A DNA stretch of 64,000 nt from Escherichia coli. GTDB lineage: Bacteria; Pseudomonadota; Gammaproteobacteria; Enterobacterales; Enterobacteriaceae. The DNA is taken from the NCBI RefSeq assembly GCF_009931435.1, contig NZ_CP043414.1; one strand, 5' to 3'. The notes under the pieces were generated by a model. That model searched no databases. It worked only from the letters and a program-made list of their open reading frames with translations, and was not told where the DNA came from. Made by a program: the position numbers and the translations under genes. Shown here in pieces: positions 5,183 to 62,873 of this stretch; position 1 is the stretch's first letter, and each line of letters begins with the position of its first letter.

Positions 5183-5227
5183 ATTATTATTCAATAAATA
5201 CGCTTAACTAATTATTAATTTATTATT

Positions 5228-5270
5228 AAACCTGCCCCGAAAATTATTATTTGGCAGGTTTAATTTCTTA
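5228..5270 (+). terminator. hairpin with large loop followed by T-rich tract downstream of kdpE
   Basis: aaacctgcc ... ggcaggttt inverted repeat then aatttctt; AT-rich context. Confidence 0.4.
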
Positions 5271-15387: not shown

Positions 15388-15392
15388 TGTAA

Positions 15393-15425
15393 TACGGCGT
15401 AGACTCATGTCTACGCCGTATTAAT
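15393..15425 (+). terminator. rho-independent terminator after fldA
   Basis: atacggcgtagac tcat gtctacgccgtat perfect 13-bp stem followed by taat. Confidence 0.65.
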
Positions 15426-59310: not shown

Positions 59311-60423
59311 ATGACGGATAATCCGAATAAAAAAACATTCTGGGATAAAGTCCATCTCGATCCCACAATGCTGCTGATCTTACTGGCATTGCTGGTTTAC
59401 AGCGCCCTGGTTATCTGGAGCGCCAGCGGTCAGGATATTGGCATGATGGAGCGTAAAATAGGCCAAATCGCGATGGGCCTGGTCATCATGGTGGTGATGG
59501 CGCAAATTCCTCCACGCGTTTATGAAGGCTGGGCTCCCTATCTCTACATCATCTGTATTATTTTGCTGGTGGCGGTAGATGCTTTTGGTGCCATCTCTAA
59601 AGGCGCTCAACGCTGGCTGGACCTCGGTATCGTTCGTTTTCAGCCGTCGGAAATTGCCAAAATAGCCGTACCACTGATGGTAGCGCGCTTTATCAACCGC
59701 GACGTTTGCCCGCCGTCGTTGAAGAACACAGGCATCGCGCTGGTGCTGATATTTATGCCCACGCTGCTGGTGGCTGCGCAGCCTGACCTGGGGACATCAA
59801 TCCTCGTTGCGCTTTCCGGTCTGTTTGTACTGTTCCTCTCTGGCCTTAGCTGGCGTCTGATTGGCGTCGCAGTAGTGCTGGTGGCGGCGTTCATTCCTAT
59901 TCTGTGGTTCTTCCTGATGCATGATTACCAGCGCCAGCGCGTAATGATGCTCCTGGACCCGGAATCAGACCCACTCGGCGCGGGCTATCATATTATTCAG
60001 TCTAAAATTGCTATTGGCTCCGGCGGATTACGCGGCAAAGGCTGGCTGCACGGTACTCAGTCACAGCTTGAATTTCTCCCCGAACGCCATACTGACTTTA
60101 TTTTCGCGGTACTGGCGGAAGAGCTGGGATTAGTGGGCATTTTGATTCTGCTCGCTCTCTACATTCTGCTGATCATGCGCGGGCTGTGGATAGCCGCCAG
60201 AGCGCAAACCACCTTTGGTCGCGTCATGGCTGGCGGCTTAATGCTGATATTATTCGTTTATGTCTTCGTAAATATTGGTATGGTAAGCGGTATTCTGCCG
60301 GTTGTAGGGGTTCCGCTCCCACTGGTCAGTTATGGAGGATCGGCGCTAATTGTGCTGATGGCTGGGTTCGGGATTGTAATGTCAATCCACACCCACAGGA
60401 AAATGTTGTCGAAAAGCGTGTAA
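59311..60423 (+). CDS. mrdB: SEDS-family peptidoglycan glycosyltransferase RodA
   Basis: ORF track 59311..60423, 370 aa, polytopic membrane protein. Confidence 0.96.
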
Positions 60424-60433
60424 GAGGTGCGCA

Positions 60434-61522
60434 ATGCGTAAGCAGTGGCTCGGGATCTGCATCGCGGCAGGAATGCTCGCGGCATGTACAAGCGATGATG
60501 GTCAGCAACAGACGGTAAGTGTACCGCAGCCTGCGGTATGTAACGGCCCCATAGTTGAAATTAGCGGGGCGGACCCGCGTTTCGAACCACTGAACGCGAC
60601 GGCAAATCAGGATTACCAGCGCGATGGTAAAAGCTACAAAATCGTGCAGGATCCATCTCGATTTAGCCAGGCGGGACTGGCCGCAATCTATGACGCCGAA
60701 CCAGGCAGTAACCTGACGGCCTCTGGCGAAGCATTCGATCCGACACAGCTGACAGCGGCCCATCCAACGCTTCCGATCCCCAGCTACGCCAGAATCACTA
60801 ACCTGGCTAACGGACGAATGATCGTGGTGCGCATTAATGATCGCGGTCCTTACGGCAACGACCGCGTTATTTCGCTTTCTCGCGCGGCAGCTGACCGTCT
60901 TAACACGTCAAACAACACCAAAGTTCGTATCGATCCGATTATTGTCGCCCAGGATGGTTCGCTTTCTGGTCCTGGTATGGCCTGTACCACAGTTGCCAAA
61001 CAGACTTACGCCCTGCCTGCACCTCCCGATTTAAGCGGTGGCGCGGGAACAAGTTCAGTGTCAGGCCCGCAGGGTGACATTCTTCCGGTCAGTAATTCGA
61101 CGCTAAAAAGCGAAGATCCGACCGGCGCGCCGGTAACCAGCAGCGGTTTCCTCGGTGCACCAACGACGTTAGCGCCTGGTGTGCTGGAAGGCAGCGAACC
61201 AACACCTGCGCCACAGCCCGTTGTTACAGCCCCCTCGACAACGCCTGAAACCTCGCCTGCAATGGTGACACCGCAAGCCGCCTCACAAAGCGCCAGCGGC
61301 AACTTTATGGTGCAAGTCGGGGCCGTAAGCGATCAGGCGCGTGCGCAACAGTACCAACAGCAACTGGGACAGAAGTTCGGCGTCCCCGGTCGCGTAACTC
61401 AAAATGGCGCGGTCTGGCGGATCCAGCTTGGCCCATTCGCCAGCAAAGCCGAAGCCAGTACCTTGCAGCAACGTTTGCAAACCGAAGCCCAATTACAGTC
61501 ATTTATTACCACCGCGCAGTAG
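60434..61522 (+). CDS. rlpA: septal lipoprotein RlpA (DPBB domain, Pro/Ser/Thr-rich linker, SPOR domain)
   Basis: ORF track 60434..61522, 362 aa; lipobox LAAC; low-complexity linker; C-terminal SPOR-like region. Confidence 0.94.
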   Translation: MRKQWLGICIAAGMLAACTSDDGQQQTVSVPQPAVCNGPIVEISGADPRFEPLNATANQDYQRDGKSYKIVQDPSRFSQAGLAAIYDAEPGSNLTASGEAFDPTQLTAAHPTLPIPSYARITNLANGRMIVVRINDRGPYGNDRVISLSRAAADRLNTSNNTKVRIDPIIVAQDGSLSGPGMACTTVAKQTYALPAPPDLSGGAGTSSVSGPQGDILPVSNSTLKSEDPTGAPVTSSGFLGAPTTLAPGVLEGSEPTPAPQPVVTAPSTTPETSPAMVTPQAASQSASGNFMVQVGAVSDQARAQQYQQQLGQKFGVPGRVTQNGAVWRIQLGPFASKAEASTLQQRLQTEAQLQSFITTAQ

Positions 61523-61661
61523 CGTAAAGCAGGCATCTGATGTGTCAATTTCTGTAAATGACGTTAACAAAGTCACGCGGAAAGTCAGATGCCTGCCGGT
61601 AGTGCATTTGCTATAGTAGGGCACTTTTTTTAATTCCATCACGGATGTCGTAGTTCAGACC

Positions 61662-62873
61662 ATGAATACCATTTTTTCCGCTCGTATCATGAAGCGCCTG
61701 GCGCTCACCACGGCTCTTTGCACAGCCTTTATCTCTGCTGCACATGCCGATGACCTGAATATCAAAACTATGATCCCGGGTGTACCGCAGATCGATGCGG
61801 AGTCCTACATCCTGATTGACTATAACTCGGGCAAAGTGCTCGCCGAACAGAACGCAGATGTCCGCCGCGATCCTGCCAGTCTGACCAAAATGATGACCAG
61901 TTACGTTATCGGCCAGGCAATGAAAGCCGGTAAATTTAAAGAAACTGATTTAGTCACCATCGGCAACGACGCATGGGCCACCGGTAACCCGGTATTTAAA
62001 GGTTCTTCGCTGATGTTCCTCAAACCGGGCATGCAGGTTCCGGTTTCTCAGCTGATCCGCGGTATTAACCTGCAATCGGGTAACGATGCTTGCGTCGCCA
62101 TGGCCGATTTTGCCGCTGGTAGCCAGGACGCTTTTGTTGGCTTGATGAACAGCTACGTTAACGCACTGGGCCTGAAAAACACTCACTTCCAGACCGTGCA
62201 CGGTCTCGACGCTGACGGTCAGTACAGCTCCGCGCGAGATATGGCGCTGATCGGCCAGGCGTTGATCCGTGACGTACCGAATGAATACTCGATCTATAAA
62301 GAAAAAGAATTTACGTTTAACGGTATTCGCCAGCTGAACCGTAACGGCCTGTTATGGGATAACAGCCTGAATGTCGACGGCATCAAAACCGGACACACTG
62401 ACAAAGCAGGTTACAACCTTGTTGCTTCTGCGACTGAAGGCCAGATGCGCTTGATCTCTGCGGTGATGGGCGGACGTACTTTTAAAGGCCGTGAAGCCGA
62501 AAGTAAAAAACTGCTAACCTGGGGCTTCCGTTTCTTCGAAACCGTTAACCCACTGAAAGTAGGTAAAGAGTTCGCCTCTGAACCGGTTTGGTTTGGTGAT
62601 TCTGATCGCGCTTCGTTAGGTGTTGATAAAGACGTGTACCTGACCATTCCGCGTGGCCGCATGAAAGATCTGAAAGCCAGCTATGTGCTGAACAGCAGTG
62701 AATTGCATGCGCCGCTGCAAAAGAATCAGGTCGTCGGTACTATCAACTTCCAGCTTGATGGCAAAACGATCGAACAACGCCCGCTGGTTGTGCTGCAAGA
62801 AATCCCGGAAGGCAACTTCTTCGGCAAAATCATTGATTACATTAAGTTAATGTTCCATCACTGGTTTGGTTAA
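61662..62873 (+). CDS. dacA: D-alanyl-D-alanine carboxypeptidase PBP5
   Basis: ORF track 61662..62873, 403 aa; signal peptide, SLTK active site, SGN and KTG motifs, C-terminal amphipathic anchor. Confidence 0.96.

Follow-up and report, generated by a model that had tools for sequence, protein, structure and literature searches.

A conserved RNA hairpin between rlpA and dacA whose 3' arm contains the -35 element of the dacA promoter

The rlpA-dacA junction and its inverted repeat

The window (the whole 64-kb stretch of Escherichia coli DNA analysed here) carries on its plus strand the genes mrdB (59311-60423), rlpA (60434-61522), dacA (61662-62873), ybeD and lipB, in this order. The open reading frame at 60434-61522 takes the name rlpA from the annotation of RefSeq E. 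coli genomes and is the last gene of the rsfS-rlmH-mrdA-mrdB-rlpA unit. RefSeq annotates nothing in the E. coli intergenic region that separates it from dacA. A small ORF in this region was rejected both on this ground and because the region lengths vary by non-multiples of three. The stretch 61400-61760 is present at an identity of at least 95% in 5424 of 5426 complete E. coli genomes, at a median of one place per genome (maximum two), and was located between rlpA and dacA every time. Right after the rlpA stop codon lies an inverted repeat that folds as RNA into a hairpin, here named hairpin 1, with the following parts.

61520-61522, plus strand: rlpA stop codon TAG, 6 nt 5' of the left arm (ORF reading)
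61529-61540, plus strand: left (5') arm of hairpin 1, GCAGGCAUCUGA (= GCAGGCATCTGA), from sequence reading, repeat finder and folds
61541-61584, plus strand: 44-nt spacer, the apical part of hairpin 1 (MFE folds)
61549-61555 with 61577-61583, plus strand: predicted inner helix UUUCUGU/GCGGAAA, 78% paired across species, with a C-G/G-C exchange at one pair
61559-61562 with 61572-61575, plus strand: predicted inner helix UGAC/GUCA, only 49% paired across species and not conserved
61585-61596, plus strand: right (3') arm of hairpin 1, UCAGAUGCCUGC (= TCAGATGCCTGC), from sequence reading and repeat finder
61662, plus strand: dacA ATG (ORF reading)

Both arms were recovered by the repeat finder and by reading of the sequence exactly as the initial annotation had described them, as a perfect 12-bp inverted repeat with a 44-nt spacer. 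The left arm GCAGGCATCTGA and the right arm TCAGATGCCTGC are complementary at 12 of 12 positions, and their centres are 56 bp apart. Perfect 12-mer inverted repeats with 3-100 nt between the arms occur at three independent places in the window, against 0.33 per 64 kb expected from first-order Markov simulations; the number expected by chance in the 139-nt intergenic region is roughly 7e-4. The other perfect repeats are the pair at 15388-15423 and 5225-5264. One has a 15-bp stem and the loop TCAT (TAATACGGCGTAGAC/GTCTACGCCGTATTA) with no T-run after it, and the other (ATTAAACCTGCC/GGCAGGTTTAAT) has a 16-nt loop in an AT-rich intergenic stretch.

At the RNA level, an additional U-G pair (61541-61584) extends the stem to 13 pairs, 12 perfect and one U-G, seven of them G-C, before a 7-nt asymmetric interruption of the helix. 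The 72-nt plus-strand hairpin (61527-61598) has a folding energy of -32.4 kcal/mol (z = -6.7), an energy that not one of 200 dinucleotide shuffles equals. Folding of 61520-61610, which the initial annotation had proposed as a check, yields a stable plus-strand hairpin of -33.3 kcal/mol, against -25.8 kcal/mol for the minus strand, and the hairpin 1 stem is retained when folded in longer contexts. Imperfect inverted repeats (79-85%) also connect the last rlpA codons (61490-61505) with the hairpin 1 loop (61547-61567), a possible alternative pairing that, judged from the sequence, would compete with the inner helices.

Simple promoter and terminator scans of 61300-61800 called nothing in the E. 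coli region. A permissive Rfam scan of 61000-62200 returned noise only, the best hit being a plant microRNA model (16.4 bits, E = 3; the gathering score of this model is 65), and no Rfam family matches hairpin 1 at or above its gathering threshold.

Pairing of the arms across Enterobacterales

We used DacA as a query to collect 80 loci from 80 species of Enterobacterales, a set in which Salmonella, Klebsiella, Cronobacter and Raoultella are absent, and extracted each rlpA-dacA intergenic region. This region is 135-153 nt long in almost all Enterobacteriaceae. When the regions are folded separately, without any alignment, sequence following the rlpA stop forms a long-range stem with a GATGCC segment in nearly all Enterobacteriaceae loci, including Escherichia, Citrobacter, Enterobacter, Leclercia, Lelliottia, Kosakonia, Pluralibacter, Pseudocitrobacter, Phytobacter, Siccibacter, Cedecea, Buttiauxella, Mangrovibacter, Shimwellia and others, as well as in several Erwinia, Pantoea and Mixta loci. 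About 20 enterobacterial genera keep the stem via compensatory changes: the arm sequences vary by genus (left-arm variants include GGCGGUAUCCGA, AGGCACCUGA and CUGGCACCAG) and complementarity is maintained, as in the following loci.

E. coli (window): left GCAGGCAUCUGA, right UCAGAUGCCUGC
Enterobacter (L004): left GGUAUCCGA, right UCGGAUGCC
Phytobacter (L029): left AGGCACCUGA, right UCAGGUGCCU
Mangrovibacter (L036): left CUGGCACCAG, right CUGGUGCCAG
Erwinia (L057): left CCGGCAUCC, right GGAUGCCGG

Pairs were counted in a plain MAFFT alignment of 49 sequences that was not fitted to the structure (alignment A1). The outer stem is 82.6% paired in A1, with changes on both sides at seven of its 12 pairs; one of these pairs is UA in 23 sequences, CG in 20 and UG in three, and is broken in only two, and the switch from UA through UG to CG recurs in several separate genera. 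Over the whole proposed structure, 74.9% of the cells are paired, against 33-44% when the 3' partners are slid by one to three columns. The observed covariation score is attained by none of 500 column shuffles of A1, and in an alignment-free comparison cognate arm pairs are favoured by 5.25 kcal/mol over non-cognate combinations, made with right arms from dissimilar species (24 of 25, Wilcoxon p = 1e-7); kinship of the sequences is uncorrected, so that these shuffle statistics and p-values are optimistic. RNAalifold did not call hairpin 1 on the long raw alignment A1; on a hairpin-only alignment (A2) it predicted a 6-bp core, GCAUCU/AGAUGC, with two compensatory pairs. Compensatory conservation of both arms, another check proposed at the outset, is thus seen in many genera.

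The wobble pairs carry information on the strand. In the 9-bp core of the 49 sequences, G-U or U-G pairs fill 29 cells and A-C or C-A mismatches only seven, an excess that is unexpected for double-stranded DNA and points to RNA of the plus strand, in the direction of rlpA. The plus-strand fold is also the more stable one in 37 of the 49 sequences. Compensatory changes and wobble on one strand are the marks of a conserved structured RNA, and this comparative evidence points to hairpin 1 acting as RNA transcribed in the rlpA direction.

A lower stem does not share this history. In E. coli, 61522-61526 is predicted to pair with 61600-61605, which would leave 1-2 nt between the hairpin foot and the mapped RNA 3' end described below. 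Across species, these segments show no cognate preference (difference -0.02 kcal/mol, p = 0.84), and in a longer fold of the E. coli sequence the pairs are swapped for others. The cognate/non-cognate duplex test rules out a lower stem, formed by the post-stop segment and the promoter spacer, as a general feature; it is lineage-specific at best.

In Rahnella, Hafnia and Edwardsiella-type loci (L067, L069, L072, L073, L075, L078 and L048), a compact G+C-rich hairpin after the rlpA stop replaces the long-range stem (for example CGGGGCUGCGGCCCCG; MFE folds of the intergenic regions upstream of position 2501). A terminator scan called no site on the plus strand of three other loci, these compact Rahnella/Hafnia-type hairpins included, and the one site that it did call, on the L073 minus strand (2285-2273), is not in the intergenic region. 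We do not claim canonical terminators at the rlpA end in Rahnella, Hafnia or Enterobacter, where the predicted hairpins come from MFE folds only.

RNA 3' ends and the dacA promoter

Published transcript maps and promoter data, together with our own reading and folding of the sequence, place the following features on and around hairpin 1.

61523, minus strand: weak antisense RNA 3' end (MG1655 664101, plus strand, 1166-1788 reads), at ...GCCUGC-UUUACG
61544-61558, plus strand: direct repeat GTCAA-TTTCT-GTAAA, about -79..-65 from the dacA start, inside the hairpin 1 loop
61589-61594, plus strand: -35 hexamer ATGCCT, 17 bp upstream of TATAGT (spacing read from the sequence)
61601-61625, plus strand: predicted hairpin 2, AGUGC-A-UUUGC UAUA GUAGG GCACU, followed by the U7 run at 61625-61631
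61606 and 61607, plus strand: Term-seq RNA 3' ends (MG1655 664018 and 664017), the A and U of GGUAGUGC-A-U-UUGCUAUAG
61609-61617, plus strand: extended -10 element TGCTATAGT, with the start site 6 nt downstream
61623, plus strand: dacA start site (A), the SMRT-Cappable-seq TSS of b0632 at 664001, reverse strand (PMC6131387)
61625-61631, plus strand: T7 run, +3..+9 of the dacA mRNA, conserved across Enterobacterales; in RNA arriving from rlpA it would act as the U-tract of hairpin 2

The 3'-end evidence used for this locus comes from one dataset, the Term-seq study of Adams et al. (2021, PMC7815308), whose supplementary file 1 reports two adjacent ends on the minus strand of MG1655, at 664018 (91306 reads) and 664017 (41794 reads). 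Both are classed there as 'orphan', and file 3 lists them as 'upstream ORF, dacA'. Coordinates beginning with 6640 occur three times in file 1, which has three tabs for growth conditions, consistent with detection of the ends in all three. The coordinates were carried from MG1655 to the window through NC_000913.3 and L081, with the dacA ATG at 663963, and the 61-nt sequences of the study were read as 50 nt, the end base and 10 nt, which was verified on the lipA row (table '-4') and the column captions. Transcript end mapping, the third of the proposed checks, thus finds published 3' ends 10-11 nt 3' of the right arm, outside any U-run and 16-17 nt upstream of the dacA start site. Since they are upstream of A61623, the RNA that ends there arrives from rlpA and is not a primary transcript of dacA; hairpin 1 likewise stays outside the primary dacA mRNA, which starts downstream of it.

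The same study reports no 3' end inside the hairpin 1 arms and lists no Rho termination region near MG1655 6638xx-6641xx (supplementary file 2; such sites are undercounted according to its authors), and we found no Rho score for the LB OD 0.4 end (PMC7815308). On the minus strand, the weak antisense end is found 6 nt beyond the hairpin, with 1166-1788 reads against 41794-91306 on the sense strand (PMC7815308), and antisense transcription towards rlpA may likewise be stopped at hairpin 1. A read-through unit, b0633|b0632|b0631 (rlpA-dacA-ybeD), with a start at 665332 inside mrdB, is listed as 'novel' in SMRT-Cappable-seq data (PMC6131387), showing that some transcripts cross the junction into dacA and ybeD. 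Assuming no indels relative to MG1655, this start corresponds to about 60292 of the window, 142 nt upstream of the rlpA ATG.

ATGCCT and TATAGT are the -35 and -10 elements of the active promoter PdacA-3 (PMC9338883). The right arm of hairpin 1 therefore spans -38..-27 of the dacA promoter and contains its -35, and its core GATGCC is nearly invariant in the 49-sequence alignment. The left arm, at -94..-83 relative to the dacA start site, has no promoter role. The -35 explains why the right arm is near-invariant whereas the left arm varies and tracks it. The extended -10 TGCTATAGT is invariant or nearly so in the 49 aligned Enterobacteriaceae sequences and occurs in most of the 80 loci. Conservation of the 44-nt spacer exceeds that of the left arm, with several invariant columns among the 49 sequences, which suggests a constraint at the DNA level.

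Inside the spacer, the direct repeat at 61544-61558 is a variant of a recurrent motif. GTAAA-N5-GTAAA with at most one mismatch occurs in 26 of 76 Enterobacterales intergenic regions, eight of them perfect, compared with 0.3% of shuffles. Perfect copies occur in Cedecea and in one Serratia, one Yersinia and one Hafnia, even in loci whose remaining region cannot be aligned (loci with GTAAA-N5-GTAAA-like repeats include L032, L038, L039, L041, L052, L059, L067 and L073), and in Serratia, Yersinia and Hafnia the repeat is found at about -75..-61 from the dacA start. It resembles the CpxR consensus, and is a candidate response-regulator site, offered as a lead only. A literature search returned no paper linking CpxR or another response regulator to a dacA site.

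Downstream of the stem, the initial annotation had noted that no T-tract follows, which is right for the sequence directly after it (CGGTAGTGCA / CGGUAGUGCAUUUG); a T7 run sits 29 nt further downstream, at 61625-61631. This run follows hairpin 2, which is composed of the dacA promoter spacer, the extended -10 and the +1 region. Hairpin 2 is weak in E. coli (-8.1 kcal/mol, z -1.4) and stronger in Enterobacter, Kosakonia, Leclercia and Lelliottia-type loci (-10 to -13 kcal/mol), where it beats at least 98% of shuffled spacers and GTATAGC of the spacer pairs with GCTATAG of the -10. It is absent in Cedecea and Buttiauxella, in which the long lower stem of hairpin 1 ends at GCUUU/UGCUAUAGU. The simple terminator scan did not call hairpin 2 in E. 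coli or in the other loci scanned, and the E. coli U-run that follows it has no reported Term-seq end (PMC7815308). The repeat itself was thus described correctly at the outset, and what had been overlooked is that its right arm holds the -35, that the spacer holds conserved promoter DNA and that hairpin 2 and the T7 run follow.

Function of the hairpin

Hairpin 1 is probably a leaky stem-loop that defines the 3' end of the mrd/rlpA mRNA, blocks exonucleases and overlaps the dacA promoter. According to this explanation, hairpin 1 (about 61529-61596) would form in plus-strand transcripts that come from the rlpA unit and from the start inside mrdB, and would define and protect the 3' end of the rlpA transcripts. 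RNase II and PNPase stall before a stem, and a tail of about 10 nt is within their range; the steady-state RNA end 10-11 nt past the stem would be the expected halt point of such 3'-to-5' exonucleases. The same distance also counts against this explanation, as the end is not at the foot of the conserved stem. We infer the exonuclease block, and likewise the way in which the end first arises: the raw end may come from leaky termination at hairpin 2 and the U7 run (61601-61631) followed by trimming back, from a cut of read-through rlpA-dacA RNA in the AU-rich GCA/UUUGCUAU by RNase E, or from weak termination at hairpin 1 itself. Some polymerases continue into dacA-ybeD. On the DNA shared by both functions, the right arm carries the dacA -35 and the loop the upstream promoter DNA; promoter function would hold the right arm, and the left arm would evolve to match it. 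The hairpin would limit rlpA transcription across the dacA promoter and may in this way insulate the promoter. The initial annotation had suggested an RNA processing or stability element, and the compensatory pairing, the wobble asymmetry and the position of the Term-seq end past the right arm all speak for this suggestion.

Stable stem-loops without U-tracts are found at the steady-state 3' ends of many E. coli mRNAs, where they block PNPase and RNase II (Dar & Sorek 2018, PMC6061677). Hairpin 1 behaves like these protective 3' stem-loops: it is a stable stem-loop without a U-rich tail, has a precise 3' end just downstream, and follows the last gene of an operon. Unlike the class described in that study, which was defined on Rho-dependent transcripts, the rlpA-dacA junction has no listed Rho region; the loop is unusually large (44 nt, partly structured) and the end is 10-11 nt away from the conserved stem. 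What is particular to hairpin 1 is its overlap with the dacA promoter, whose -35 is in the 3' arm and whose upstream region makes up the loop. REP/BIME 3' stabilisers are likewise intergenic palindromes at mRNA 3' ends, but hairpin 1 is single-copy and locus-specific.

Hairpin 1 could itself be a non-canonical intrinsic terminator that releases the transcript just past the stem without a proper U-tract, so that the mapped end is at or near the release site. As at intrinsic terminators, a stable G+C-rich stem directly follows the stop codon and is preceded by A-rich sequence (GTAAAG); 5 nt further on comes another small hairpin with a U7 run. The 3' end is strong and sharp (two adjacent positions), no Rho termination region is listed nearby, the long lower stem of Buttiauxella and Cedecea-type loci (L038-L041) ends right before UUUUGCUAU, and the minus strand has UUUACG after the stem, with the weak antisense 3' end there. 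Intrinsic terminators, however, have a U-tract of about 7-8 nt that starts 0-2 nt after the stem, and an RNA end about 7-9 nt from it. The 10 nt after the stem of hairpin 1 (CGGUAGUGCA) contain two U, its loop is 44 nt (typically about 3-8 nt) and the end is outside the U-run, in agreement with the earlier verdict that this is not a classic terminator; of the features of such terminators only the stable stem is present. In addition, the simple terminator scan finds nothing, full-length reads from the mrdB-internal TSS reach ybeD, the lower stem is not generally conserved, and hairpin 2 is weak in E. coli and has no 3' end at its U-run. We consider release at hairpin 1 itself unlikely as the main explanation. 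Somewhat more doubtful is an endonucleolytic site that splits rlpA from dacA in read-through RNA, through an RNase E cut 3' of the hairpin or an RNase III cut in the stem, after which the hairpin stabilises the upstream product. Read-through transcripts do exist, and the end at GUGCA/UUUG lies in an AU-rich single strand next to a stable hairpin, which fits the preference of RNase E for R-N-cut-W-U-U. Most 3' ends that are neither intrinsic nor Rho-dependent have also been attributed to processing (Adams et al., PMC7815308). The outcome of such a cut would nevertheless be the same as in our preferred explanation, a hairpin-protected 3' end. For RNase III, whose substrates have about 20 bp or more of near-continuous helix and are cleaved inside the stem, the helix of hairpin 1 runs for 13 bp before its interruption, and none of the mapped 3' ends falls within the stem.

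The arms could instead work as DNA, as inverted sites for a dacA regulator or as a cruciform dyad, without a role for RNA. Either arm would be a plausible place for a regulator to bind, the right one overlapping the -35 and the left one being at -94..-83, and the region between them is conserved DNA with the direct-repeat motif. An operator dyad would have both half-sites conserved and no preference for G-T over A-C; here the arms differ by genus with complementarity kept, G-T is tolerated four times more often than A-C, the arm centres are 56 bp apart, and an RNA 3' end maps at the structure. The protein-binding dyad controlling dacA that the initial annotation had offered as an alternative is hence not supported, in view of the variation of the arms with pairing kept, the wobble bias and the arm distance, and a purely DNA-level element is very improbable. 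That the element is a chance palindrome or a REP/BIME-like copy of a dispersed repeat, functionless by itself, has next to no probability: perfect 12-mer inverted repeats do arise by chance, at about 0.33 per 64 kb, but this one is single-copy (median one place in the 5424 genomes), is conserved across families with compensatory changes and has a mapped RNA end at it, and the conservation data have effectively refuted this reading already. A roadblock by promoter-bound polymerase, or sigma-dependent pausing at a -10-like element, was rejected as the origin of the end, which lies 5' of the -10 and well past the point at which a roadblock would stop the polymerase, as judged from known polymerase footprints.

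A more ambitious and quite improbable possibility is that the hairpin and its embedded promoter act together as a regulatory junction, linking PBP5 synthesis to the elongasome operon (PBP2-RodA-RlpA). Hairpin formation (hairpin 1, and hairpin 2 with the U7 run) could then set how much transcription from rlpA crosses the dacA promoter and either disturbs or augments it; hairpin formation could itself depend on the ribosome at the rlpA stop, an idea based on the stop codon being only 6 nt upstream of the hairpin, or on a ProQ-type RNA-binding protein, and the loop repeat would recruit a response regulator of envelope stress. The literature search found nothing relevant on the rlpA-dacA junction or on ProQ with rlpA.

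Returning to the protective stem-loop that we favour, hairpin 1 is real, conserved and functional-looking, but ordinary in kind. We found no description of an rlpA-dacA hairpin in the literature searched, and the end is an 'orphan' in the published Term-seq table; the hairpin now annotates this strong end as belonging to rlpA-derived transcripts, and not to an event in the dacA 5' UTR. It is also a case of dual-use sequence, in which constraints from RNA structure and from a promoter act on the same bases in Enterobacteriaceae and some Erwiniaceae. Constructs that replace or move the dacA promoter, or that tag the end of rlpA, will break the hairpin, which may alter the stability of rlpA/mrd mRNA or the read-through into dacA. 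A further lead, on the regulation of PBP5, is the conserved GTAAA-N5-GTAAA-like repeat of the loop.

The 39-nt 5' UTR of dacA (61623-61661), with no obvious Shine-Dalgarno sequence near the ATG, is very conserved across Enterobacterales (CACTTTTTTTAA, then CCATCACGGATGTCGT). Its T-run is T7 in the window, T6 in MG1655 and BL21, and interrupted in one of the other loci (L002). A T-run so near the start site could, as a speculation, support reiterative transcription.
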